A stretch of 64,000 bases of DNA. Origin: Fibrobacterota bacterium (GTDB lineage: Bacteria; Fibrobacterota; Fibrobacteria; UBA11236; JADFYW01). Below the pieces are notes generated by a model, which was not told the origin of the DNA, did no database searches, and saw nothing but the letters and a program-made list of their open reading frames with translations. The stretch covers positions 1,828 through 65,827 of the forward strand of contig JBHPJW010000006.1 of the NCBI GenBank assembly GCA_042567505.1. The letters are read 5' to 3'. Positions 13,146-58,391 of this stretch are shown here, piece after piece. Numbering within the stretch: the first letter of the stretch is position 1; every line of letters starts with the position of its first letter. Both the position numbers and the translations under genes were made by a program.

Positions 13146-13212
13146 TTACACCTCGATATTTATCATAAGGTAGTTTTTTTTAGATAGTGAGGTATAGATT
13201 ATGGATATATTC

Positions 13213-13255
13213 AGGTGTCAGGTGTCAGGTGTCAGGTGTCAGGTGTCAGGTGTGA
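13213..13255. repeat. tandem heptanucleotide repeat (CAGGTGT)x6
   Basis: caggtgtcaggtgtcaggtgtcaggtgtcaggtgtcaggtgtgagg read directly. Confidence 0.9.
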
Positions 13256-13447
13256 GGCTCTCGATCTTGTCATGCCGGACTTGATCCGGCATCTTTCCCA
13301 GGTAATCTTGGTAGTAATTTACCAAGGCAAGACGCTGGGTCTGTGCCCGGTGTGACAGGTGATGGCGACTATCTCTTTTCTCCTTACTCCCCACTCCTTA
13401 CTACCAGAGCCCAGTACTCCATCACTCTAGTATTCTCCAGAGTTACA

Positions 13448-14185
13448 TCACCTGGGAATCGTCAACACCTGACCTGGGAATATGAGATCCGGATTCTTAA
13501 TAAGGTGCTCGTTGGCCCGGTATATTTCCGGCCACCGTTCCGGATCTCCGAATATTTCCGGCTTCTCTGCGATGTGCCATAGGCAGTCCCTATCTCCCGG
13601 CACCTCCCGGACCGTATAGGTGTCGGCCATTGGGATAGAAGAGTTGGCCGGTTCTCCTGGTTGCCCGGCATCGCTCAATGTCTGTTCCTTTGCATGTCTG
13701 GCATCGCTCAACGCCTGTTCCCTTGCCTGCCGTGAATCGCTAAATGACTGTTCCATACCAGTAAAATGCTCTTCCAGCCTGGGAATAATAGCGGCTTTAT
13801 GTTTCCTGAGCCCGGCCAGGTTTTTTTCCCCCTCTGTTATGGCTTTGTCCCATACGAATAGGTCTTCGGAATACTGAGAGGAAAAGGTATTTACGTCTGT
13901 TTTCAGCTCATCAAGCTGATTGATAAATTCATCGTATTCCTGCTGTGTTATGCCTGCTACGGAAAGAATTTCCCTCCATAGTTTCTGAGATTTTTCCCTT
14001 AATTCTTTTAGTTCCAATTTAAGGGCTGCAATTCTGGTTTTTAACTTGGCGATTTTCGGCAGTGCGGATTCTTCTCTGGTTTTAGCATCATTCAACTGTT
14101 CTTGGTAGCTTTCATAGGTCATTTCCTCTGCGGCCAGGGATATGACAAGCGCTAAAAAAATTATTGAAGGTTTCCTGGTCACACT
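13448..14185 (-). CDS. LysM-domain protein with coiled-coil region and signal peptide
   Basis: C-terminal LysM (DCLWHIAEKPEIFGDPERWPEIYRANEHLIKNPDLIFPGQVLTIP); internal repeat QAREQALSDARHAKEQTLSDA; start assigned to GTG giving VTRKPSIIFLALVISLAAEE signal. Confidence 0.6.
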   Translation of the reverse strand, partial: SVTRKPSIIFLALVISLAAEEMTYESYQEQLNDAKTREESALPKIAKLKTRIAALKLELKELREKSQKLWREILSVAGITQQEYDEFINQLDELKTDVNTFSSQYSEDLFVWDKAITEGEKNLAGLRKHKAAIIPRLEEHFTGMEQSFSDSRQAREQALSDARHAKEQTLSDAGQPGEPANSSIPMADTYTVREVPGDRDCLWHIAEKPEIFGDPERWPEIYRANEHLIKNPDLIFPGQVLTIPR

Positions 14186-14189
14186 TTCC

Positions 14190-14411
14190 CTACCGCCCCT
14201 TTTTTTGCTTGACCATTTCCAGTTCCGCTTGGTTCCGCTCCAGAATTTGGTTTTCTTCTTCGCGCTCCGCCTCGAGCCTGGATAGATCTGCCTCCAGCAG
14301 TCTGACCTGGTCTTCTGCCGTGGTGGCAGCATCTTTTGACTGTTCCAAGTCGTCCATTTCCGCCGGAGAAGGTTTCTTAGCGCAGGCACAGACAATGAAG
14401 AGAAAGATAAC
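14190..14411 (-). pseudogene. small coiled-coil lipoprotein-like ORF lacking a canonical start codon (abuts tRNA-Asp)
   Basis: Reading frame ...AVIFLFIVCACAKKPSPAEMDDLEQSKD...LEAEREEENQILERNQAELEM; upstream part of the six-frame ORF is just the tRNA-Asp sequence translated; no ATG/GTG/TTG found after the tRNA. Confidence 0.3.
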
Positions 14412-14529: not shown

Positions 14530-14645
14530 TAAGGTTTCAGTTTTCAGGGGTCAGTTAGGTAAGTATCCGATCTGACTCCTGACTCCTGATTCCTGACCAC
14601 TACAGTCCTCTAACTTCTGACTCCTTATTTCTCACTCTTCTCAAA
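14530..14645 (-). repeat. inter-tRNA copy of the CAGGAGTCAG-heptad intergenic element
   Basis: atctgactcctgactcctgattcctgaccactac is the reverse complement of the 6965-6991 copy; further ctgactcc/ctcactc heptads. Confidence 0.7.
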
Positions 14646-18523: not shown

Positions 18524-18649
18524 TTCCTTCCTCTAGTTGAACGGTAATCATAAAAGGCTTATGAAAAGTATAATTTTTACGGGAAAAGAATAGGTTCTAT
18601 TGAAAACTTCCAGGCTCGGTATATAGTCCAGTTGGCCGGGCAGGCGATC

Positions 18650-21600
18650 CTATTCCAGCGTAAAGGCGTCCAGGTTGCCTCCGGCGGTGCCGAATATCAC
18701 CAGACCGGCATCCTCGCTTATCCAGGGACCGGCGTCAGCGTCGTCAGAAGCGTCGCTGTAGGGCCAATTGGTCATGGTTGCGGCGCTGGAGGCGTTGTCG
18801 TCTATGGCATAATATCGCCCTCCCTGCCGGCCGAAGTACACAACGGTGTCCCAGGGCAGGGGAGCTGCGTTTACGGTATCCAGTGCGTCATAAGCCCAGT
18901 CGACAGTGGCCGCTATGCCTGAGCCGTTGTCGGATACTTTCTTCACGTTGTTTTCCACAGCAACGTAGATGTCTCCGGTGTTGGCGGTGTCGTCGGAGGT
19001 CTTTCCCATAATAAAGGCCGGGCCGGTGTTGGCGGTACCCAGGTTCACGGAAGTGGGAGACCATTTAAACGACCAGGTGGAAATAGTGATGGCGTACAGG
19101 CTGGAGGTGGCGGGTGTCACATAAAGCGTGTTCCTGTCCACCAGCAGGGGCAGCTGAACGTCTGTGCCCATGTTGATACCGGCGCCGGTCTGGGTTCCGT
19201 CGTAATCATACTTGTAGACATATCCGCCCCCGCCCGTGGCCGTGGCGACATATATCTCATCATTTTTTACCACGAGGTCCGCGCTCAGGCTGACGTCGGC
19301 CAGGTTCACCGGCCATCCGCTCATGGTGGAATCATTAATGTAATTATACCTTGTTATGTAGTTTGTATAGGTAATAAAAAACGTGGAGTCGTCCGGGCTG
19401 GCATAGGGATTGCCCGCCGTGGCGTTGAGATCAAGGGGCGTGAAGACTTCGGAAGAGGAAGAAATATCATCCTGCCTGCCTATCACGTATTCTCCGGCTG
19501 AAGCGAAGATCTTGTATTTGCTTACGTCCGTGTCGTAGACATAAGTGGGCATGTTGCATGCCCCGTATGCCGAGGTGGAAAAAAACCATTTCTGCTGCCC
19601 GTCGCTCAAATTATAGCTGAAGAGCCTGTTAACGCCGGATCCTGTGCCTATATAAATCCGGTTCTCGGTAATGGCCCCGCCCTGCACAGGGCCCAGGCCT
19701 GTCTTGCTCCATGCTGCGGCCACCATATTCTTGGTGTAATTGTCTATGGAAGCAGTGGAGTCGCCGTTTCCGATGGCGTCGAAGGCCCAGATTTTGAAGT
19801 AATACAAGGTGTTTATACTCAGTCCGGTGATGGTGGTGGAGGTGGTGGCAGCTGACGTCAGGGCGCCGTCGTCGCCATCGTCCCATTCCGTGCCGGAGCT
19901 GTCCCGCGCCTCTGCCAGGGTGGTGCCGTACCAGATCTCATAGTGATCAAAGTTCCGGTCCGTGGCTGCGGTCCACCCCAGGGTAACCGTGGTGCCCGTG
20001 GAGTCCGATCCCGCCAGGGAGGCCAGCCCGGCCGGAATTTTGGTATCGATGGCAAAAGTATCGCTTTCGGTGGTGTCCCTATTGGATGAGCCGTCGGTGG
20101 CTATCACCCGGACCAGGTACACGGTATCTGTGTTGGGCAGGTCCGTGTCGACGTCCCAGAGGATGGTATCATTTCCCGTGGCCGAGGTGTCTATGCCCGT
20201 GCCTATGTCCCCGGAAGTGGTTTCCAGGCTGTCATTGCTGTCCCAGCTGCCGCCGTAGAGCTTGTACTCCACTTTTATGTCTACCGTGCCGTCATTGGCG
20301 TCATCAACCTCATACCCCACTCTCACGCTGTCTGGGTGGTATTGGGCGGCATTGACATAAGGCGCGTCATCCCATCCCGTCACCACTGGATCATTTGTGG
20401 CCAGGGTGGTGGTGTTTACGTCAGTATCCGTGTCCTCATTGCCCATGGAATCCAGAGCCCATATCTTAAAGTAATAGGTGGAGGAGGGAATGAGCGAAGT
20501 GATATTGGTGGTGTCGGTGGCCATGGTGGCCAGGGATGCGTCATTGTCCTGGTCCCATTCCAGGGCCGTTCCGGTGCGGCCCTGGACGTCCGACTGGCTG
20601 GTGCCATACCAAATTTCATAATGGGAAAAATGGGATTCGCTGCTGGTAACCGTCCAGGAAAGCCCCACGTCGGTGGCATTTGTGGCCCCAACTGTCAGGC
20701 CGGCCAGTCCCGAGGGGTCCACCAGGTCTATATCAAAGCTGCCGGAGACCGTGGTGTCTGTATTGCTGTCGTCGTCGATGCAGTGGACCCTGACGTTATA
20801 GGCGGCGTCTGTGGTACCGGGGATCAAATCAGTGTATACGTCCCACTGCAGGGTGTCATCTATGCTCGCTCCCGTAGAAATGGTATCGTAATCCCCGGAA
20901 AGCGTGGACGGGTTTGTCCAGGAACAGGAGCTCGCCAGGCAGTATTGCAGCGAACAGACGGCCGTGGTATCGTTGTCATCGCTTACCTCATAGCCCACCC
21001 GGACCGTGCCGGAGTCTATTTGCTCGGCGTCAACCTGGGCGGCCTGGTCCCAGCCCGTGACCGTGGGCGCCGGGTCATCCAGGGTGGTTGTGCTGTCCCC
21101 TGTTATCGTAGCTTCGTTATTCATGGCATCCACGGCCCAGATTTTAAAATGATACTTGGTGGAAGGGCTCAAACCGGTAACAATCATGCTGGTGGTGGCT
21201 ATGTCCTTCATGCCGTTGTTGTTGTCCCCGTCCCATTCCAGGGCTGATCCGTTGCGGTTTTCCACTTCGCTTTTAGAAGAACCGTACCAGATTTCATAGT
21301 GGTCGAAATGTCCTTCATCGGATAATGCCGTCCAGGAAAAACTCACTGAAGTGCTTAAAGGATCCACCACGGCAAAGTCGGCCAGCCCCACCGGAGATTT
21401 GGTGTCCAGGCCGAAGGCCGCGCTCTGCGCGGTGTCGGCCAGCCCGCCGTCACTGGCGATGACGCGCACGTAATAGGTGCCGTCTATGGCATCGCCCAGT
21501 TGGTCACGAACGCTCCATCTAATGGTACGATCGGCGTACTCATTGGTGGCGTCCACTCCGGCGCCTATGTTCCCGGCGGTATCGGTGGCGGCGGTCCAGG

Positions 21601-24370
21601 ACCCCCCGTCCGGCTTGTATTGCAGGGTCACGGTAACTGTGGCGTCGTACTGGTCATAGACCTCGTACTGGATGGTGGCGGAATCCGTCTCGTCTTGCGA
21701 AGCAGTCACGGTACTGGTCGCCCCCAGTCCCGTGACCTGGGGAGGATAAAGCACATAGGTCACCTCCACGTACGGAACGTTGGCCCCTTCGGAAGCGTGG
21801 AAATTCTTATAGGATTCGTTGGTCCCTTCGGCATTGGAGATGAACACCATGCCATAATTGGCGCTATCGCCCGAGTGCCAGTCCTTAAAGGTCTGGGTTA
21901 TGTCCCAGGTATACCAGCCGGTGTTTCCCACCGAGGCGCTCACCACAGAGGCTGATCGGTCATTTCCCTCGGATCCTACGCCGGCCGTGGTCCAGGTGTT
22001 TTCATCGGCGTATTCGGTCCAGTTGCTCATGTTGGCCTGGTCCTGGCCCGTTCCAGTTCCCTCATTCCAGTCCCTCAATACCCTGTAGAGAGTGATGGTC
22101 TGGTTGGTGGCGCTGCCCACCGACCCGCAATAGGACTTAAATTCAGCCAGGAGAACAGTGGCCCCGGTGGGCACATCGCTGAAATCATTCACCTTCACCA
22201 GGGAGCGCATAACGTAGCTGCCGCCCCCGCCGGAACCGACCTTGCCTGCCGTGGCCCCGCCCCGCGTGGCGTCATTGCCGTAATTATAACTGGTATTTAA
22301 GTTTTCTATCATATTGTCATCAAGGTCGGTGAGCTGGACCACTGAATCCGCGTCTGTTTCGGCCAGGGTGGTGACGGCCGTATCGTTGATAGCCGTTTCG
22401 TTGCCGTAATCATCCATGGCCCATACCTGGAAGTAGTATGTTCTTTCGGCCAGCAGGCCGGTGATGGTGGTGGAAGTAGTGGCAGCGCTGGCAAGATTGC
22501 TGTCGTCCGGATCGTTGTCCCATTCCGCCGCGTTGCTGCGGTTCTGCACGCTGGTGGAATCTATGCCGTACCATACTTCATAATGATTGAAATTCCCGTC
22601 TGTGGCGGCGCTGGACCAGCTCAGGGCCACGGTGCTCATGGTGGTGTCGGTGGACGAGAGCGTGGCGGAAAAGGAGGGAACCTCGGTGTCTATGATGAAT
22701 TCCGCCGTAGCCGCCGTATCGATATTGCTGCCATCGTCCTCGGCCAGAATCCTGATGTAAGCAGTGGTGTCTGTTGAGCCGAACTGGGTGCGCACGTCCC
22801 AGTAGACAGAAAGGTCTTCCACCATGTCGACCGCGACTGAACCGGTGTCCCCGTCGGTATTGGCCTTGAAGTCGGCCCAGGCGGTCCAGGAGGCATCGTC
22901 CTTGAGTTTCATTTCCATGGTTACGGTGATGGCGGAATCGTCCTGGTCCCAGGCCTCGTATTTCACCTGTACGCTGTCGGTGTTTATCTGCACCGCCACC
23001 GGATCGACGATGGGGTCCCATCCCGTGATGAGCGGAACTACCGAGGTGAGGGTGTTGGCGCTGTCGGGATCCGTGGTCATTTCGTTGCCGGTTGAGTCTA
23101 TGGCCCATAACTTGAAATAATACTTGGTGTTGTATTCCAGCAGGATTACCTGGGCGCTGTCCGTGGAAATAGTGTTCATGACAGCGTAATCATCCGGGTC
23201 CCATACATACGCCGATACGTTCCTTTCTTCCACATTGGTGAGGTTGGTCCCGTACCAGATCTCATACTTGCTGAAATGGGCCTCGCTGGCCACGGTCCAT
23301 TCCAGGTCCACCGTAGAAAAACCCGAGTCCACCACAGTGAAATCCGCCAGGGAAACGGGGTCCCTGGTATCGATTACAAAGGAAGAGGTGCTTACCGTGT
23401 CCGCGTATCCCTCATCATCGGTGGCTATTGCCCTGACTATGTAGCTGCTGTCAATGCCGGACCCCAGCTGAGCATAGGCGTCCCATACAATGACCCGGTC
23501 CGAGGATGAGGAATTGGCTTCCACGCTGCCTATGTCCCCGGAGGTATTTGTGAGTGCAGTCCAGCCGCCGGCTCCGCCCACCTGGTACTGGGCCGTTATA
23601 GTCACATTATCATCGTCGCTGTCGCTGACTTCATAGGAAATATTTACCGTACTGGTGTCCTCCTGGTCTCCGGTGGCGTTGGCCCCGGAGCTGAGGCCGG
23701 TTATGACCGGCAGTACTCTATACCATACATCGAGGTATGGCTTGTTGGACCCGGCGTCCAGTGAGTTGAAATTCTTTCTCAGATCATCCGCTTCGGTGCC
23801 TTCCAGGATGAGCCCGTAATTAGTTAAATCGCCGTCAACCCAATCCTGAGCAGCTCCTGTCACCCGCCATTTGAACCAGGTGGAGGTGGCGTTTATCACC
23901 ACAGAGTCATAGGCCGAGGCCCCGCGGTCAGTCCCGGCCGTGGCGGCGCCGCTTGCATCCCAGGTGGAAACGTTATGTTTGTTTGAGTTCCAGCTGACCG
24001 CGCCGTCCTGTTCGGCGCCGTCTGCGCTGCCTTCCAGCCAGTCCTGCAGCAGGTGGTATACCCAGATTGATTCAGGGCTGGCCACATCTTCGCCTGAGCA
24101 ATACAGTGCCAGGTCAGCACTGTCTATGACGGCATCGCTGGGCAGGGTGTCGTCTATGGGGAAATTGATGACAATCCGGTAGGGTCCCCTATTCGCTAAA
24201 GCCTCCGTGGTTATGTATCCCAGATACAGGGTGGAGGAGCCCCCATAGTTGTCATCTGCGGATTTATCATTGATATGGGCGTCATTTCCAATGGTAAACT
24301 GCTTGTAAGTGGCCTGGCACAGGCTGCCTAATATGGCAATCATAAGCCCTGTTTTTAAAACCTTATGCAT
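18650..24370 (-). CDS. giant (1906 aa) secreted modular surface protein: two copies of a ~150-aa N-terminal module, at least 5 alternating Ig-like/FN3-like domain pairs, C-terminal PQQ-like beta-propeller
   Basis: Signal peptide. FN3-like repeats anchored by H(F/Y)xxYEIWYG...YYFK(I/L)WA(I/V)D. Second repeat type anchored by (V/I)TGWD...YEV.D.D...Y.VR(I/V)(I/H)A. Module with LY/VYxxLxDW(N/L)EG...NYG(L/M)...PY(L/V)(D/E)V occurs twice. C-terminal WxF/DGxxKW propeller blades. Long internal DNA direct repeats. Confidence 0.8.
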   Translation of the reverse strand: MHKVLKTGLMIAILGSLCQATYKQFTIGNDAHINDKSADDNYGGSSTLYLGYITTEALANRGPYRIVINFPIDDTLPSDAVIDSADLALYCSGEDVASPESIWVYHLLQDWLEGSADGAEQDGAVSWNSNKHNVSTWDASGAATAGTDRGASAYDSVVINATSTWFKWRVTGAAQDWVDGDLTNYGLILEGTEADDLRKNFNSLDAGSNKPYLDVWYRVLPVITGLSSGANATGDQEDTSTVNISYEVSDSDDDNVTITAQYQVGGAGGWTALTNTSGDIGSVEANSSSSDRVIVWDAYAQLGSGIDSSYIVRAIATDDEGYADTVSTSSFVIDTRDPVSLADFTVVDSGFSTVDLEWTVASEAHFSKYEIWYGTNLTNVEERNVSAYVWDPDDYAVMNTISTDSAQVILLEYNTKYYFKLWAIDSTGNEMTTDPDSANTLTSVVPLITGWDPIVDPVAVQINTDSVQVKYEAWDQDDSAITVTMEMKLKDDASWTAWADFKANTDGDTGSVAVDMVEDLSVYWDVRTQFGSTDTTAYIRILAEDDGSNIDTAATAEFIIDTEVPSFSATLSSTDTTMSTVALSWSSAATDGNFNHYEVWYGIDSTSVQNRSNAAEWDNDPDDSNLASAATTSTTITGLLAERTYYFQVWAMDDYGNETAINDTAVTTLAETDADSVVQLTDLDDNMIENLNTSYNYGNDATRGGATAGKVGSGGGGSYVMRSLVKVNDFSDVPTGATVLLAEFKSYCGSVGSATNQTITLYRVLRDWNEGTGTGQDQANMSNWTEYADENTWTTAGVGSEGNDRSASVVSASVGNTGWYTWDITQTFKDWHSGDSANYGMVFISNAEGTNESYKNFHASEGANVPYVEVTYVLYPPQVTGLGATSTVTASQDETDSATIQYEVYDQYDATVTVTLQYKPDGGSWTAATDTAGNIGAGVDATNEYADRTIRWSVRDQLGDAIDGTYYVRVIASDGGLADTAQSAAFGLDTKSPVGLADFAVVDPLSTSVSFSWTALSDEGHFDHYEIWYGSSKSEVENRNGSALEWDGDNNNGMKDIATTSMIVTGLSPSTKYHFKIWAVDAMNNEATITGDSTTTLDDPAPTVTGWDQAAQVDAEQIDSGTVRVGYEVSDDNDTTAVCSLQYCLASSCSWTNPSTLSGDYDTISTGASIDDTLQWDVYTDLIPGTTDAAYNVRVHCIDDDSNTDTTVSGSFDIDLVDPSGLAGLTVGATNATDVGLSWTVTSSESHFSHYEIWYGTSQSDVQGRTGTALEWDQDNDASLATMATDTTNITSLIPSSTYYFKIWALDSMGNEDTDTDVNTTTLATNDPVVTGWDDAPYVNAAQYHPDSVRVGYEVDDANDGTVDIKVEYKLYGGSWDSNDSLETTSGDIGTGIDTSATGNDTILWDVDTDLPNTDTVYLVRVIATDGSSNRDTTESDTFAIDTKIPAGLASLAGSDSTGTTVTLGWTAATDRNFDHYEIWYGTTLAEARDSSGTEWDDGDDGALTSAATTSTTITGLSINTLYYFKIWAFDAIGNGDSTASIDNYTKNMVAAAWSKTGLGPVQGGAITENRIYIGTGSGVNRLFSYNLSDGQQKWFFSTSAYGACNMPTYVYDTDVSKYKIFASAGEYVIGRQDDISSSSEVFTPLDLNATAGNPYASPDDSTFFITYTNYITRYNYINDSTMSGWPVNLADVSLSADLVVKNDEIYVATATGGGGYVYKYDYDGTQTGAGINMGTDVQLPLLVDRNTLYVTPATSSLYAITISTWSFKWSPTSVNLGTANTGPAFIMGKTSDDTANTGDIYVAVENNVKKVSDNGSGIAATVDWAYDALDTVNAAPLPWDTVVYFGRQGGRYYAIDDNASSAATMTNWPYSDASDDADAGPWISEDAGLVIFGTAGGNLDAFTLE

Positions 24371-24434
24371 ACCAGCCTTGTTTTTTTCATCTGTTTGCCA
24401 TTGTTAGTGACGTATCCATAGTAATGGTTGTCGC

Positions 24435-24695
24435 TTAGACCTTGAATTCGATATTCAGTCTGGTGCCTGTGGCTTCGGCCACCCGTATCAGCGTGCTGAC
24501 AGTGTTTCCACCGCCTCCATTATGTTCCATCCTGGAAACCACTTGCTGGGTGATCCTCAGGCGTGAAGCCAGTTCTTCCTGGGTCATCCCAACCATCAAG
24601 CGTACTTTCTTGATGAGGTTTTCCGTTTCCGGTACGACGGTTCCGGCGGATCGCTCTGTTTTGGGTTCTTCCAGGGTTGTTTCGGGATTAATCAT
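24435..24695 (-). CDS. XRE-family helix-turn-helix transcriptional regulator
   Basis: HTH motif MVGMTQEELASRLRITQQVVSRMEHN; lies 65 bp upstream, same strand, of the giant surface-protein gene. Confidence 0.8.
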   Translation of the reverse strand: MINPETTLEEPKTERSAGTVVPETENLIKKVRLMVGMTQEELASRLRITQQVVSRMEHNGGGGNTVSTLIRVAEATGTRLNIEFKV

Positions 24696-24739
24696 GGTCT
24701 GTCTCCTTTCTTAAACTCCCGCCTGTGTCGCCGCAGGCA

Positions 24740-25095
24740 AATGAGTCCGGTGATTGAAATTGAAGATGCCAAGCCGGTCCCGGCCTGAAGTCTCAGATAA
24801 GACAGCGGCCGGCTGTATATGAGCAAAGGTCCAGGCACCGGTTGGCAAAAAGTTATGGTTATAAAGATTTCGTACTGTGAGAAGGTTGAAGGCCAACCGG
24901 CGCCGGAGGCACAATGCAGATAAGACAGCGGCCGGCTGATTATCTGGGAAAAGCCGGACATCGGTTGGCAAAAAGATATGGTTATAAAAAGTTCGTACTG
25001 TGAGAAGGTTGAAGGCCAACCGGCACCCTAAGAACAATGCAGATAAGACAGCGGCCGGCTGTTTATGAGCAAAGGTCCGGACACCGGTTGGTTTT
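24740..25095. repeat. ~3.5 tandem copies of a 123-bp repeat (each with an internal 9-bp-stem hairpin ccggttggc...gccaaccgg) immediately upstream of the XRE gene
   Basis: Units begin cagataagacagcggccggctg at 24794, 24917 and 25040 (~85% identity); partial unit at 24740-24793; inverted copy of the core (agccggccgctgtc) at 25278-25291. Confidence 0.85.
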
Positions 25096-25667
25096 AAGAA
25101 GCTGATAAAAACTGACTTGACACGGATAGTATGAAGCGGATGGCAGAGCAGGTCTCTCGCCATCAGGAACCGGGATTTTTGTGGATTGAATGGAAAGCGA
25201 ATGCTACCGAAGATTTTTAACCTTACAGGTACTGCAAGTTTTGTGAGCACACGGAAAAACGTGTGATAAAAGAGAAAGCCGGCCGCTGTCATACTTTATA
25301 TCTGTCGATCTTTTTAGATCGGAAAAATTATGTCTATTTATTTCAAGTATACAGCAAATAGGCTGTATGTGCCACGTAATAAGTATATTTATGATATTCA
25401 TCATAATGTAATTATAAGAACAGTTTATTGCTTTCTCAAAACTTTGCTTTTTTGTGTTATAATTCGGGATTGTTATACATCAAAGAACACCAAAAAACAA
25501 ATAAATTCAAATATCAATAATATTGGTTTTAGGCCTGTGATTACGAACCTGGTTGAGGTAAATCCAGCTGATGCTTATCTACTGGGCCTTGGACAGACCG
25601 GCAAAAGGGAAGGTTTTTTGTGGAATTAAATTGGAACGTACTTAATCAGGGATGATTAAAGGCAGTT

Positions 25668-25722
25668 TTATCCCCCCCCTCCCTTGCCCAGACCCTGAAG
25701 GGAATGGGGTGAAGGGAGGGAA
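25668..25722 (-). terminator. candidate hairpin terminator downstream of pilQ
   Basis: On the minus strand ccctcccttcaccccattcccttcagggtctgggcaagggaggg forms a 9-bp stem (ccctccctt/aagggaggg) 20 nt after the pilQ stop; weak U-tract. Confidence 0.3.
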
Positions 25723-25746
25723 GGTCCGCTCGATCACATAAAAGTA

Positions 25747-27228
25747 TTATTCGTACTGGGCCTCGCCGCCGATTTCATTGAGGAAATCCCCCACCTTTTC
25801 ATCACTTATCTCTTCCTCCTGGATCTCGTCGGGGGGATCATGCCTGGGTGATTCCAGGTTTTCTTCCGCAGACCGGGCTTCCTCCATATCAGAGATCATT
25901 CGCAAAGGAATTGCGGCTGTCCTGGGCTGGGCCTGACCGTTCTTAACAATGTAGGGGGTGATGAAGATTATCAAGTCTTTTTTAACGATGTTCTTTGAGG
26001 TATGTTTGAACAGAATTCCCAGTAAGGGGATGTCTTTTAAAAATGGAATCCCCCTTTCAGTTTCATTTTCAACCTTGGATGTCAGGCCCCCGATCACTAC
26101 CGTTTCGCCGTCATTTACCACCACTGTAGTTTTTGCCTCTGTAGTGGTTACAATGGGCCCGCGGGTAATCGCGTCAGTGCGGGCCTCGCTTCTCTGTGGA
26201 GACAAGTCGAGAATGACCCTGTTGTCATTAGTGATATGGGGAGTGACAATAAGTTCGATTCCCGCGTCCACGAATTCTGTGGTGGAGTTTAGATTCGCGT
26301 CCAACTTGTTGAAGGGCCGCCGTTCGCCGATAAAAATCCTGGCTTCGGTATTATCAAGCGTGGTTATCTGCGGTTTGGCAACCACTTCGCCTTTTCCCTC
26401 TGAAAGGAGGTGTTCAATGGAGGCGCCCAGCCTGCCGTCGAGCAGCCTGGCTGCCACGGCCAGAGTGGGATTGGCCACTCTTCCCGGAGAAGATCTGCCC
26501 AGAACCGCTCCTGATTGGCTGGCTGAAGGAACATCATTCAAATCAGGTGCCGGCGCTCCGGTTCCATAACCCCAGTTGATTCCCAATTCCTGGGCCGCGT
26601 CTGAACTTGCCTCGATTATCTGCGCTTGAATGTGTACTTGATAGGTTTCAACGTCAAGGTTTATGATGGCTTTTTTTATCTCGCCTAATTTTGATTGAAT
26701 GTCGGTTATAATAAAGGCGTTGGACATCTCCACAATAGCCAGTTTCCCCCTTTCAGACAGGAGACCGGTTACGGCGGTTTGCAGATCTTCCACCTTGGTG
26801 TGTTTGAGGTGGATTATCTCCCTAATCAGCTGAGCCTCTTTTTCCTGGGAGTTGAATTCCTTAAGGGACTGCACGTAGATGTATTCGTCCTCAATGGAAT
26901 AGGTAAGGCCGTACATCTGGCACAGCACCTCCAGAGCCTGCTTCCAGGTTTTGGCCGTCAGCGTCAGGTTCAGACGGCCGGAAAGCGTGGGAGACAGGAC
27001 GATGTCTACCTTCCCTGCGGCGGATATGGCCTTGAAAGCTGAGCGAATATCCAGGTTGGGGAAGTAAAAATCCCTGGCAACATTCTGAGAAGATGCGGCC
27101 GGCCCTGGTTGGTTGGTATTATCCGGGTTCTGACCCGAAGGAGGTTCGCTCTGATCCTGGCCTGAGAGCAGGCCGCCCATCAGGAACAACGTGAGAATTA
27201 TTCTTTTCAGTACGTCCCGGTGCTTCAT
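25747..27228 (-). CDS. pilQ: type IV pilus secretin PilQ (GspD/PilQ secretin family, short N-terminus)
   Basis: Secretin C-domain VVIGGLTSKVENETERGIPFLKDIPLLGILFKHT...LIIFITPYIV; signal peptide; last gene of pilMNOPQ. Confidence 0.9.
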   Translation of the reverse strand: MKHRDVLKRIILTLFLMGGLLSGQDQSEPPSGQNPDNTNQPGPAASSQNVARDFYFPNLDIRSAFKAISAAGKVDIVLSPTLSGRLNLTLTAKTWKQALEVLCQMYGLTYSIEDEYIYVQSLKEFNSQEKEAQLIREIIHLKHTKVEDLQTAVTGLLSERGKLAIVEMSNAFIITDIQSKLGEIKKAIINLDVETYQVHIQAQIIEASSDAAQELGINWGYGTGAPAPDLNDVPSASQSGAVLGRSSPGRVANPTLAVAARLLDGRLGASIEHLLSEGKGEVVAKPQITTLDNTEARIFIGERRPFNKLDANLNSTTEFVDAGIELIVTPHITNDNRVILDLSPQRSEARTDAITRGPIVTTTEAKTTVVVNDGETVVIGGLTSKVENETERGIPFLKDIPLLGILFKHTSKNIVKKDLIIFITPYIVKNGQAQPRTAAIPLRMISDMEEARSAEENLESPRHDPPDEIQEEEISDEKVGDFLNEIGGEAQYE

Positions 27229-28865
27229 GGTAGCATCCTTTCCTTTGGAGATTTAAGCTTCAGGGTATAGAAACGGAACACCCCGTATTCTGATATTTCA
27301 AATACGACTTTATGCCGTGTAATCTGAGTGACTTTGCCATTGGATATGGAATCGCCTTTTCTCAGAGCAATTGATATGGCAGGTTCTGTTCTATGCTCTA
27401 ACACGGCCAGCGGGTCTTTGGCATTCCAGATAATCCCTACCAGTTTCATCTGGTCGAGGATTATGTCTCTGTCCGAAAGCGGCGCATGTTCCACAGGGAT
27501 AAAAGGATCACGGCGCCCAAAGCTGGTATACTGGACCTTTTTTCTCTCCCTCTCGCGCTTGCGTTTTTCCTGTTCCTCAATCCTTTTTTTCTCAGCAAGT
27601 ATCCTGGCCATTTCCTGTTCTCTTTCTATTCTTTCCTGTTCAGCCTTGCGCTTTTCTTCCAGGCGGAGCTTTTCTTTTCGCTTCAAATTGAGGATCTCTT
27701 CCTCCTTTTTCCTTTTTTCCTCCCCAGCTTTTTTCCTGGCCAATTTCTCCTCTTTCTTTTTCGCCTCTTCTTCGGCCCTTTGTTTGGGTTCCAGTTCTTT
27801 TTTTTTTAATGCTTCTTCCTCCGCCCTTTGTTTGGCTGCCAGTTCTTTTTGTTTTCTGGCTTCTTCTTCAGCCTTTTGTTTCGCGGCTAATCTCATTTCT
27901 TCAGCTTCCCTCTCCGCTTGTTGTGTTTTTATGCTCTTTCTTTGTTCAGGAGTTAGTTTGTCTTCATATGCCAGTAGGTTGTTCTTGACCCAGCCGGTAT
28001 CCTTCCCAGTGTACACTTGAAACCAGTCCTTTTTTCTGCTGATTCCGGTGACTTTTTCGCCGGCATGTATTGTTCTGATTGTTTGCGAGCCCGTTCCTGG
28101 AGCATCTCTCAGTTTTATCCTGTTGCTGAGAGCGATATAGTCCCGGTTTTCTTCAGAAATAGAGAACGTCTTACCCGGCATGGTTTTTAATCGGGATGTT
28201 TTTCGGTCCATGGCAGTTCCAAGGTCAAAAGCGCTTTCCGTCCCCAGGACATCCTCCAGTTTCACTGAGTCTTCTGCCTGGATCTCCCGGGGATTGCCGG
28301 TATCAGGCGTTTCCACGGTGGGGGGCGGTAATTGGATGGACTCATCGGGATTCTCATTCTGGGCGAGGAGTATATGGCTCGATCCTTCAATTTCTGAAAT
28401 GGGCTGGGTGGAGGGAGAAACCGTCCAGTGGAATTTGTCCCCCCTTGATTTTCCCAACGCGAGGTTGATGGTCCCGGCATTGGATTTTGAGGCCTTGTAT
28501 TTGCTGCTTCGGTTCAGGGTTCGAAGGCTGAAACCCACACTCAGAAAACCACGAACCTTGCCGTGGTTTTTCCCGATGACTTTGCGGACGGCCATATGTG
28601 ACACATAGGGGTTGTTTCTGGCGATGGGATAGTTGCCGTAGATGATACTGCTCCCGGTTTCCAGAAAGTTAATGGAATAAATTCCGGTTTCAGCCTCGAA
28701 ATGCTGGAAAAACCTGGGGATGCGCGAGGCCAGCGAATCCTTCCGGAAAGAAAATTCCACAAACACCTGGTCGCCGTCGCTGGCCAGGCGCACTTTTTCG
28801 AGAATAGCGCCGCGAAGCGGCGCCGTGAGGCACGCCAACAGGAAGAATAAGGCGCCGGGTTTCAT
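27225..28865 (-). CDS. PilP-like pilus assembly protein fused to AMIN-like N-domain, SH3b domain and ~130-aa K/E-rich coiled coil
   Basis: Position between pilO and pilQ. C-terminal RRDPFIP...LVGIIWN...GKVTQITRHKVVF resembles PilP core. SH3b-like segment IKLRDAPGTGSQTIRTIHAGEKVTGISRKKDWFQVY...GWV. Long AEEEA/KK/RKAEQER repeats. 4-nt overlap with pilQ. Confidence 0.6.
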   Translation of the reverse strand: MKPGALFFLLACLTAPLRGAILEKVRLASDGDQVFVEFSFRKDSLASRIPRFFQHFEAETGIYSINFLETGSSIIYGNYPIARNNPYVSHMAVRKVIGKNHGKVRGFLSVGFSLRTLNRSSKYKASKSNAGTINLALGKSRGDKFHWTVSPSTQPISEIEGSSHILLAQNENPDESIQLPPPTVETPDTGNPREIQAEDSVKLEDVLGTESAFDLGTAMDRKTSRLKTMPGKTFSISEENRDYIALSNRIKLRDAPGTGSQTIRTIHAGEKVTGISRKKDWFQVYTGKDTGWVKNNLLAYEDKLTPEQRKSIKTQQAEREAEEMRLAAKQKAEEEARKQKELAAKQRAEEEALKKKELEPKQRAEEEAKKKEEKLARKKAGEEKRKKEEEILNLKRKEKLRLEEKRKAEQERIEREQEMARILAEKKRIEEQEKRKRERERKKVQYTSFGRRDPFIPVEHAPLSDRDIILDQMKLVGIIWNAKDPLAVLEHRTEPAISIALRKGDSISNGKVTQITRHKVVFEISEYGVFRFYTLKLKSPKERMLP

Positions 28866-39014: not shown

Positions 39015-39095
39015 AGAGTGGTCAGGAGTCAGACAGTAATCGTACCAAACTGACCACTGACCCCAGATCACTGACTCCTCAATTACTCAAGGATA
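39015..39095 (+). repeat. copy of the ~85-nt CAGGAGTCAG-heptad intergenic element
   Basis: agtggtcaggagtcagac...aactgaccactgaccccagatcactgactcctcaattactcaagg is collinear with 6962-7046. Confidence 0.75.
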
Positions 39096-44854: not shown

Positions 44855-45155
44855 CCACTTTGGTAAGTGGTAAAAGGTAAGTGGTAAGTGGTCTCAAAAG
44901 TAGCTTTACTCTGTCATTCCCTGCCTCTCGATTTCACTCGAGATAAACTCCGGCAGGGAATCTTCTAGCTCCGATGTGGCCGAATTATTAAAACGCCTCA
45001 TCGGAAGTTGAGGATCTTCCGCTGGAGCCTGCCTTCCGCGAAGGCGGGAGGCGGAAGATGACACATGGTTGGGACTTTTGAGACAGTCTCTAGTAAAGGG
45101 TTCAGAATTTTTACCAAGATGGTTTTATACCACATCACTTACCACTTACCACTTA
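44855..45155. mobile_element. ~300-bp structured intergenic element with terminal inverted heptad repeats (MITE-like or structured ncRNA)
   Basis: Left end tggtaagtggtaaaaggtaagtggtaagtggtctcaaaagt; right end acttttgagac...cacttaccacttaccacttaccaa; internal hairpins (ttccctgcc/ggcagggaa; cttccgc/gcggaag). Confidence 0.5.
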
Positions 45156-45227
45156 CCAACCAGAACCCATTACTCCACCACTCCATCACTCCAAAGGATC
45201 ATCACCTAAAGGTTTGACAAAACAACC

Positions 45228-48131: not shown

Positions 48132-48182
48132 TTTGTCAGTAGGGGTTTGTTTTTTTTGGGACTATAAAAAGTAATAATAGTA

Positions 48183-48215
48183 GGGAGTAGGGAGAGGGGA
48201 GTTTGATTAATTATA
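48183..48215. repeat. heptad repeat array (GTAGGGAG-type), related to the array at 58345-58372
   Basis: agtagggagtagggagaggggagtt is the reverse complement of ctccctactccctactcc. Confidence 0.7.
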
Positions 48216-52639: not shown

Positions 52640-52713
52640 AAGGGCATGTAGCTCAGTTGGTTAGAGCACCGCTCTGATAAGGCGGTGGTCGGAAGTTCAA
52701 ATCTTCCCATGCC
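52640..52713 (+). tRNA. tRNA-Ile (GAT)
   Basis: gggcatgtagctcagttggttagagcaccgctctgataaggcgg...; anticodon loop cTGATAa; CCA not encoded. Confidence 0.9.
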
Positions 52714-52723
52714 CAGGTTTCAG

Positions 52724-52762
52724 GAGTCAGTCAAATTGCCGTCTGACTCCTGGAGACGTGGG
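52724..52762. repeat. hairpin built from the CAGGAGTCAG motif between tRNA-Ile and tRNA-Ala
   Basis: caggagtcagtcaaattgccgtctgactcctgg. Confidence 0.7.
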
Positions 52763-52835
52763 GTTATAGCTCAGTTGGTAGAGCACCTGCTTTGCACGCA
52801 GGGGGTCAGGAGTTCGACTCTCCTTAACTCCACCA
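52760..52835 (+). tRNA. tRNA-Ala (TGC)
   Basis: ggggttatagctcagttggtagagcacctgctttgcacgcagg...; anticodon loop tTTGCAc; CCA encoded. Confidence 0.9.
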
Positions 52836-58289: not shown

Positions 58290-58385
58290 ATTTTAGTGGG
58301 GAGTTATGAGTGGGGAGCGGGGAGTTTTAACACTCCCTACTCATAACTCCCTACTCCCTACTCCTTACTTATAATTCCTAACTCC
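58290..58385. repeat. hairpin and heptad-repeat element between rpoA and rplQ
   Basis: gtggggagttatgagtggggagcggggagtt ttaacactccctactcataactccctactccctactcc: 19-bp inverted repeat plus (CTCCCTA) heptads. Confidence 0.7.
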
Positions 58386-58391
58386 TTTAAA

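Follow-up and report, generated by a model that had tools for sequence, protein, structure and literature searches.

A diverged 123-bp tandem array with an invariant core upstream of an XRE regulator gene and a giant-protein gene in a Fibrobacterota bacterium

The stretch of DNA analysed here (64,000 nt of a contig of a Fibrobacterota bacterium, hereafter the window) carries a 123-bp tandem repeat in the 1051-bp gap between pilQ (25747-27228) and the gene of a small XRE-family regulator. The minus-strand gene order at the locus is PilZ-domain gene, pilM, pilN, pilO, SH3-domain gene, pilQ, the gap, the XRE gene, a gene for a giant protein of 1906 amino acids (aa), aspS and phoH. An original prediction, made from the sequence alone, described the repeat as 3.5 tandem copies of a hairpin-bearing unit and proposed that it might serve as iterated operators for the XRE protein, as a copy-number phase-variation switch or as tandem structured RNA. 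Our analysis showed that the array is a genuine non-coding tandem repeat with a single known locus, that its short core is conserved far better than the remainder of the unit, and that the array and the two genes behind it lie within an insertion absent from three related genomes.

The tandem array and its core sites

Tandem Repeats Finder (TRF), run on the plus strand of the window, reported 24794-25091 with a period of 123 bp, 2.4 copies, 85% matches and a score of 447; this was the sole long-period tandem repeat that it reported in the window. A repeat search placed the starts of the copies at 24794, 24917 and 25040, with identities to the reference of 100, 84 and 60%. As the neighbouring genes are encoded on the minus strand, the array was read on that strand, and a comparison of the units and of the edges of similarity gave the following layout:

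24794-25096, minus strand: tandem array with a period of 123 bp, about 2.46 units
25096-25062, minus strand: partial unit of 35 nt, upstream end of the array
25060-24938, minus strand: unit U3, full length (123 bp)
24937-24815, minus strand: unit U2, full length (123 bp)
24814-24794, minus strand: stub of 21 nt, downstream end of the array

The two full-length units, U3 and U2, are identical at 103 of 123 positions (84%; 20 differences, 16%). The similarity of the third copy, starting at 25040, spans only about 57 nt (25040-25096) and amounts to 60% over 123 nt. The upstream partial unit is closer to U2 than to U3, and the 3' ends of the units have the look of a replaced segment. The repeat and its three starting points were thus recovered as originally predicted, and the proposed identity of about 85% agrees with the TRF value, but the copy number is about 2.4-2.5 and not 3.5, and the copy at 25040 falls short of the proposed identity. 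A further partial unit had been placed at 24740; no significant colinear similarity was found on the downstream side past the 21-mer at 24794-24814. The former end coordinate of the region, 25292, is the start of a 193-aa open reading frame (ORF; 24711-25292, minus strand) that crosses the array.

Each unit opens with the 21-mer AGCCGGCCGCTGTCTTATCTG (minus strand), which is exact in all three copies, with none expected in shuffled sequence. A 14-nt core of this 21-mer occurs one additional time, inverted, upstream of the array:

25040-25060, minus strand: core site S3, exact 21-mer, including ACAGCGGCCGGCTGT (ACAGC-N5-GCTGT)
24917-24937, minus strand: core site S2, exact 21-mer, forming a 30-bp imperfect palindrome with the preceding CAGATAA
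24794-24814, minus strand: core site S1, exact 21-mer, 99-119 nt upstream of the XRE ATG, downstream flank unique
25277-25293, plus strand: site L, inverted core copy AGCCGGCCGCTGTCaTA, exact over 14/14 nt (25277-25290) and matching 16/17 when extended, flanks otherwise unrelated
25061-25276, no strand assigned: L-S3 segment of 216 bp, small local hairpins present, no sigma-70-like or TAnnTTTG match above the thresholds applied

The inverted copy had been predicted at 25278, and an inverted core is indeed present at 25277-25290. Site L lies 230 bp, centre to centre, from the nearest array copy, and together with S3, S2 and S1 it forms inverted repeats whose 17-nt arms are 94% complementary and are separated by 216, 339 and 462 nt, respectively. 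A perfect small palindrome with two GATC sites, CGATCT-N4-AGATCG, occurs about 10 bp upstream of L (25303-25322) and is not enriched elsewhere in the window.

An imperfect palindrome, ACAGC-GGCCG-GCTGT, forms part of the core; S1 and S3 match it exactly, and S2 and L each deviate from it at one position. The stretch of highest conservation is, however, asymmetric. At the U3/U2 junction the palindrome that extends S2 reads CAGATAA...TTATCTG. Allowing up to one mismatch, about one match to ACAGC-N5-GCTGT is expected by chance per 64 kb, and no exact match was found in the 23 comparison loci. The differences between U3 and U2 are clustered: the longest identical runs measure 33 and 27 nt (p ~1e-4 under random placement), and 12 differences fall within 23 nt (p ~2e-4 under random placement). 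In addition to the core, the units share another long conserved block, CCGGTTGGCCTTCAACCTTCTCACAGTACGAA (CCGGTTGGCC...ACGAA), of 33 nt. Because the downstream flank of S1 is unique, and L is inverted with both flanks unrelated, the core behaves as an independent constrained module and not as a by-product of the duplication.

The insertion between pilQ and aspS and the search for further copies

The original prediction had placed the array in the promoter or 5' leader of an operon for a helix-turn-helix regulator followed by the 1906-aa gene, and the two genes were found downstream as described. Their setting comprises the following features, of which the insertion status of the block had gone unnoticed:

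18524-25746, minus strand: insertion block, pilQ-aspS stretch of 7,223 bp, absent from three related genomes by synteny
24435-24695, minus strand: XRE-family (HTH_3) regulator of 86 aa, HTH_3 match at E = 6e-10 over residues 28-80, AAGGAG ribosome-binding site
18650-24370, minus strand: giant DNRLRE/Fn3-repeat protein of 1906 aa, N-terminus signal-peptide-like, gene start 64 nt past the XRE gene

The block contains an AT-rich promoter region, L, the array, the XRE gene and the 1906-aa gene. Three relatives, with PilQ proteins of 68%, 60% and 58% identity (comparison loci L020, L025 and L022/L023), keep the order PilZ-pilMNO-SH3-pilQ-aspS, followed by phoH where the contig reaches that far (L020, L022/L023); the wider synteny with LptD, histidine kinase, HDOD and ComEC genes is also kept. 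Since pilQ and aspS are only 298, 168 and 117 bp apart in these relatives, the XRE/giant-gene block represents a recent lineage-specific insertion, a two-gene islet placed in a conserved junction. This 7.2-kb insertion into an otherwise conserved pilQ-aspS junction is the most solid new fact of the present analysis. The edges of the block showed no direct or inverted repeats of at least 11 nt. One 14-mer recurs in the aspS promoter region of L022; as it is AT-rich and in the opposite orientation there, it was judged a chance match. In the pil operon, the SH3-domain gene takes the position of pilP and carries an in-frame 48-bp repeat of 2.4 copies (27766-27881).

The giant gene has a guanine-plus-cytosine (GC) content of 0.565, and of 0.70 at third codon positions (GC3), compared with a GC content of 0.46-0.48 for neighbouring genes. 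Its homologues also exceed their own surroundings slightly in GC content, so that composition by itself argues only weakly for a foreign origin. Five full-length homologues of the giant protein, with 42-57% identity, were identified, and none of their loci (L014-L018) has an XRE gene, a long leader, the core motif or an array. Another relative has two tandem paralogues of the giant gene next to tyrS. A full HMMER search with the XRE protein returned no close homologue, only remote, generic helix-turn-helix relatives.

No other copy of the unit or the core was present in the remaining 63 kb of the window or in the comparison loci, and the 1051-bp intergenic region, compared by local blastn with the remainder of the window and with 18 loci, returned chance hits only. 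The 21-mer was absent from the genome, metagenome and viral contig collections, a distant blastn search of the leader against plasmids and phages gave no match, and exact look-ups of the XRE and PilQ proteins found no record. A second assembly or strain variant of the organism was likewise not found in the collections searched.

Repeats of other kinds are frequent in the window. Its intergenic DNA contains many short tandem arrays of 7-bp units (44861-44892 and 45136-45158; 13211-13257 and 13380-13402; 58290-58386; 14572-14597; 39049-39075; 48179-48202), several of which pair with an inverted array of the same heptamer across 30-250 bp rich in hairpins. (TGGTAAG)n and (CACTTAC)n, 243 bp apart, are one such pair, and a GGGGAGT-like array with (ACTCCCT)n between rpoA and rplQ is another; the unit AGTAGGG at 48179, when rotated, equals the reverse complement of ACTCCCT. 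These heptamer arrays look like a genome-wide family of intergenic elements resembling short tandemly repeated repetitive (STRR) sequences or miniature inverted-repeat transposable elements (MITEs). A further ORF (13448-14395), which has no family match, carries an in-frame 33-bp repeat of 2.8 copies (13662-13754).

Promoter, hairpins and reading frames of the gap

The likely start of the transcript and the potential hairpins of the units are given by three features:

25411-25439, minus strand: best promoter-like site of the gap, TTGAGA-17 nt-TATAAT, an 11/12 consensus match only, the promoter rules of the phylum not being established
24834-24846 and 24892-24904, no strand assigned: arms of the U2 hairpin, 9 bp perfect and 13 bp at 92%, 45 nt between the arms
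24962-25022, no strand assigned: U3 hairpin with 8-bp arms CGGTTGGC and GCCAACCG (24962-24969 and 25015-25022), 45 nt between the arms

The site at 25439-25411 was the sole strong promoter-like match and lies upstream of all four core sites. If it is used, transcription would start near 25404, and the resulting leader of about 700 nt would hold L (about +111), S3 (+344), S2 (+467) and S1 (+590) ahead of the XRE ATG (+709). Within the L-S3 segment, no sigma-70-like match of at least 9/12, no TAnnTTTG and no terminator-like site was detected. A divergent small RNA on the plus strand, suggested by an extended -10 match at 25455-25463, was rejected, as its fold was no better than that of shuffled sequences (z = +1.35). 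Inspection by eye for a sigma-54 promoter near S1, an RfaH ops element, DnaA boxes, integration host factor (IHF) boxes and integron attC-type cores gave nothing that fits.

Each unit had been thought to contain a 9-bp stem. This holds for U2 (24838-24846 / 24892-24900), while the stem of U3 measures 8 bp and the third, partial unit has a single arm (25084-25091) with no partner. Folds of the single units were weak on the sense strand (z = -2.8 and -0.4), with the 45-nt loops unstructured. The L-S3 domain reached z = -6.0 and the whole leader, compared with shuffles, z = -7.4 in sense and z = -8.0 in antisense orientation. As the antisense strand folds equally well, the signal of the leader simply reflects inverted repeats at the DNA level. 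No compensatory change was seen in any of the 17 pairs of the consensus fold, for which two sequences were compared; in the extensions of the hairpins, two of the three differences between units, as read from the sequence, retain a G-U pair on the sense strand. Rfam gave no match to the array, either at gathering thresholds over the whole window or at E up to 10 over 24300-25800; its hits, four tRNAs and one chance match to a small nucleolar RNA (snoRNA), all lie outside. Two tRNA genes, for tRNA-Ile(GAT) and tRNA-Ala(TGC), stand side by side after prmC (52642-52835), a pair whose usual home is the 16S-23S spacer, and no rRNA gene was detected in the window.

Since 123 bp correspond to 41 codons, reading frames stay open through the units. 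In addition to the 193-aa ORF, an 89-aa ORF in another frame (24692-24961, minus strand) ends with a stop codon that overlaps the XRE ATG as ATGA. The differences between U3 and U2 are spread over the codon positions as 8/7/5 and, in the other frame, as 7/5/8, without an excess at third positions, and the six frames of the array returned no family match in Pfam, NCBIfam or PHROG at E up to 10. The predicted protein of the array also has an implausible amino-acid composition. The 193-, 89-, 66- and 99-aa ORFs were rejected as genes. A single metagenome match to the two-core pattern was found, a WD40-repeat gene with a 126-bp period (Ga0075163_10160967, comparison locus L019, 2010-2649), in which the recurring 15-mer GACAGCGGCCGGCTG encodes DSGRL. 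The resemblance of this 15-mer to the core is a coincidence and a caution for searches with spaced-repeat patterns; the array as a decayed WD40 gene was rejected, as the six-frame Pfam scan was empty.

Possible functions of the array and its relation to known systems

We tentatively prefer to regard the array as a cis-regulatory module that became duplicated and the core of which may be a protein-binding site, probably for the adjacent XRE protein. A 123-bp segment carrying the core would have been duplicated, and its copies would have drifted to 84% identity while the core stayed invariant. The core sites might then be bound by a dimeric helix-turn-helix protein, for which the 86-aa XRE regulator encoded just downstream is the candidate; both the binding and the identity of the binder are inferred. 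Because the sites lie between the promoter-like element and the XRE start codon, a protein occupying the 3+1 sites, with L perhaps looped to the array, would be expected to block or dampen transcription of the XRE/giant-protein operon, and the sites could serve as roadblocks, or as anchors of a loop, beyond the likely promoter. The direction of this effect is likewise deduced from position. The giant secreted protein, a recent acquisition, would then be expressed under autoregulation with a threshold-like response.

This proposal is consistent with the invariance of the core (21/21 positions in three copies, compared with 20 differences in 123 between the full units), with the ACAGC-N5-GCTGT palindrome, with the occurrence of the core outside the repeat, and with the location of L and S1-S3, all less than 600 bp upstream of the HTH_3/XRE gene. 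Members of the XRE family, such as phage Cro/CI, Xre of PBSX and HipB, commonly control their own expression by way of several repeated palindromic operators that precede their gene. Of the roles originally proposed, iterated XRE operators are thus compatible with the sequence and preferred. Several observations weigh against such operators. The best-conserved stretch, CAGATAAGACAGCGGCCGGCTG, is asymmetric, and the non-palindromic left flank is better conserved than the right half of the palindrome. The spacing of 123 bp corresponds to 11.7 helical turns, so that the sites are not helically phased, and is far wider than in classical multi-operator regions. The conserved 33-nt block is left unexplained by an operator model, and the promoter is a consensus match only. 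No orthologous loci were found for comparison: the relatives of the XRE protein are remote, and the homologues of the giant gene are not preceded by an XRE gene or an array.

Somewhat doubtful, though a real possibility, is that the array is a relic minisatellite, produced by a duplication and an unrelated inverted core copy during or after the 7.2-kb insertion and devoid of function, its uneven conservation resulting from patchy gene conversion or mosaic repair. The restriction of the array to this genome and to a lineage-specific insertion is in line with such an origin, as are its mere 2.5 or so copies with degenerate edges, the seemingly replaced 3' ends, the closeness of the upstream partial unit to U2 and the many other intergenic repeats of the genome. 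A relic would not, however, be expected to retain three perfect copies of a 21-mer together with a fourth occurrence of its 14-nt core in unrelated context, the clustering of differences is highly non-random, and the position upstream of the gene of a DNA-binding regulator is the one expected of operators. A copy-number switch, as originally considered, is disfavoured: the units differ by 16%, share longest identical runs of only 33 and 27 nt and have not been homogenised like frequently slipping arrays. Very improbable is a dispersed mobile repeat, MITE-like or resembling repetitive extragenic palindromic (REP) sequences, that landed here and was partly duplicated. L and S3 do flank about 250 bp in the manner of terminal inverted repeats in a window rich in other intergenic repeat elements, but no target-site duplication could be read at the outer edges of L and S3, and neither the remaining window and comparison loci nor the genome, metagenome, viral, plasmid and phage collections contained a further copy. 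Scarcely conceivable is a repeat that encodes protein, with the 193-aa or the 89-aa ORF specifying 41-residue repeats: two minus-strand frames do run open across the units, but the even spread over codon positions, the empty six-frame searches and the odd amino-acid composition contradict it, and the one metagenome sequence with the 15-mer is the unrelated WD40 gene. An array of clustered regularly interspaced short palindromic repeats (CRISPR) had already been rejected because of the divergence of the units, and rightly so, as the stretches that separate the 21-mers are repeats of each other (about 80% identical) and not unique spacers; a Pfam scan of the 56 larger ORFs of the 64-kb window turned up no cas genes.

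The inverted core copy makes a DNA inversion switch a formal alternative, which the original prediction had missed. Here L and S1-S3 would be the sites of a recombinase encoded elsewhere, and inversion of 216, 339 or 462 bp would toggle the XRE/giant operon. Invertases that act globally, at a distance from their own gene, have a precedent in Mpi of Bacteroides fragilis. The 14-bp perfect (16/17) inverted repeat of L and S3, 216 bp apart, with one arm repeated twice more, has the form required, and the asymmetric central GGCCG would give the sites a defined orientation. Invertons are typically found near surface-type genes (PMC11892184, PMC11602134), and the giant secreted surface-type protein encoded downstream belongs to this class. 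Such a switch is nevertheless unlikely: no domain of a tyrosine or serine recombinase was found among the 56 ORFs scanned, the L-S3 segment holds no promoter-like site in either orientation while a strong one lies outside, no canonical terminator is present within it, only one orientation is seen in the assembly, and an arm present in three direct copies within diverged 123-bp units is not known as an inverton layout. Its elaboration into a multi-site, shufflon-like switch in a non-coding leader, in which a distant recombinase would set graded or on/off expression of the giant protein and the XRE regulator, is distinctly unlikely. Control by the structure of the leader RNA seems even harder to credit. 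In that case L would pair with one of the three S copies in a 14-bp GC-rich helix and, together with the unit hairpins of the roughly 700-nt 5' leader, govern processing, stability or translation. The upstream promoter-like site would place the array in the transcript, the L-S3 domain and the whole leader fold better than shuffles, and the retained G-U pairs speak in its favour. Against this stand the equally good antisense fold, the weak unit folds with unstructured loops, the lack of compensatory changes and the lack of an Rfam match. The tandem structured RNA units of the original prediction found little support on the same grounds.

Should the core sites turn out to be operators or recombination sites, they would offer a compact and experimentally tractable example of how a freshly inserted gene for a giant surface or secreted protein can bring along a small regulator of its own and a control region that has been duplicated. 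Gene regulation in this phylum has hardly been studied. As an observation from a single genome, the array is of value mainly as a lead.

Compared with known systems, the array resembles mycobacterial interspersed repetitive units and variable number tandem repeats (MIRU/VNTR), BOX and enterobacterial repetitive intergenic consensus (ERIC) elements in having tandem units of 50-130 bp in transcribed intergenic DNA, internal dyad symmetry and ORFs that run through the units. Those elements occupy many dispersed loci per genome, whereas here a single locus is known, and the units are 16% diverged with one short core selectively conserved. With invertons such as fimS and the promoters of Bacteroides capsule and surface-protein genes (PMC11602134, PMC11892184), the locus shares an inverted repeat flanking a few hundred bp upstream of a surface-type gene. 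Unlike invertons, it has no promoter inside the flanked segment, no recombinase gene nearby and one arm three times in tandem. Multiple-inversion systems, such as the R64 shufflon and those of the Min/Pin/Cin type, shuffle coding segments and have their recombinase gene (rci or Hin family) beside the sites. Common to them and the present array are more than two copies resembling recombination sites, in both orientations within a short region, but the DNA here is non-coding and no recombinase was found in the ORFs scanned. The multi-operator regions of Cro/CI/XRE systems (lambda OR/OL, PBSX Xre, HipB) share with the locus short, partly palindromic sites upstream of the regulator's gene, a small HTH_3 regulator and a co-transcribed downstream gene; the Xre of the Bacillus subtilis prophage PBSX and HipB each have four operators. 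In those regions the sites are about 20-30 bp apart, whereas here they are spaced by 123 bp within diverged tandem units, one site is inverted 230 bp away and the conserved stretch is asymmetric; the core has no sequence relation to any known operator. The array is thus a so far unique instance of a familiar kind, that of repeated regulator-type sites or of a minisatellite in a regulatory leader.

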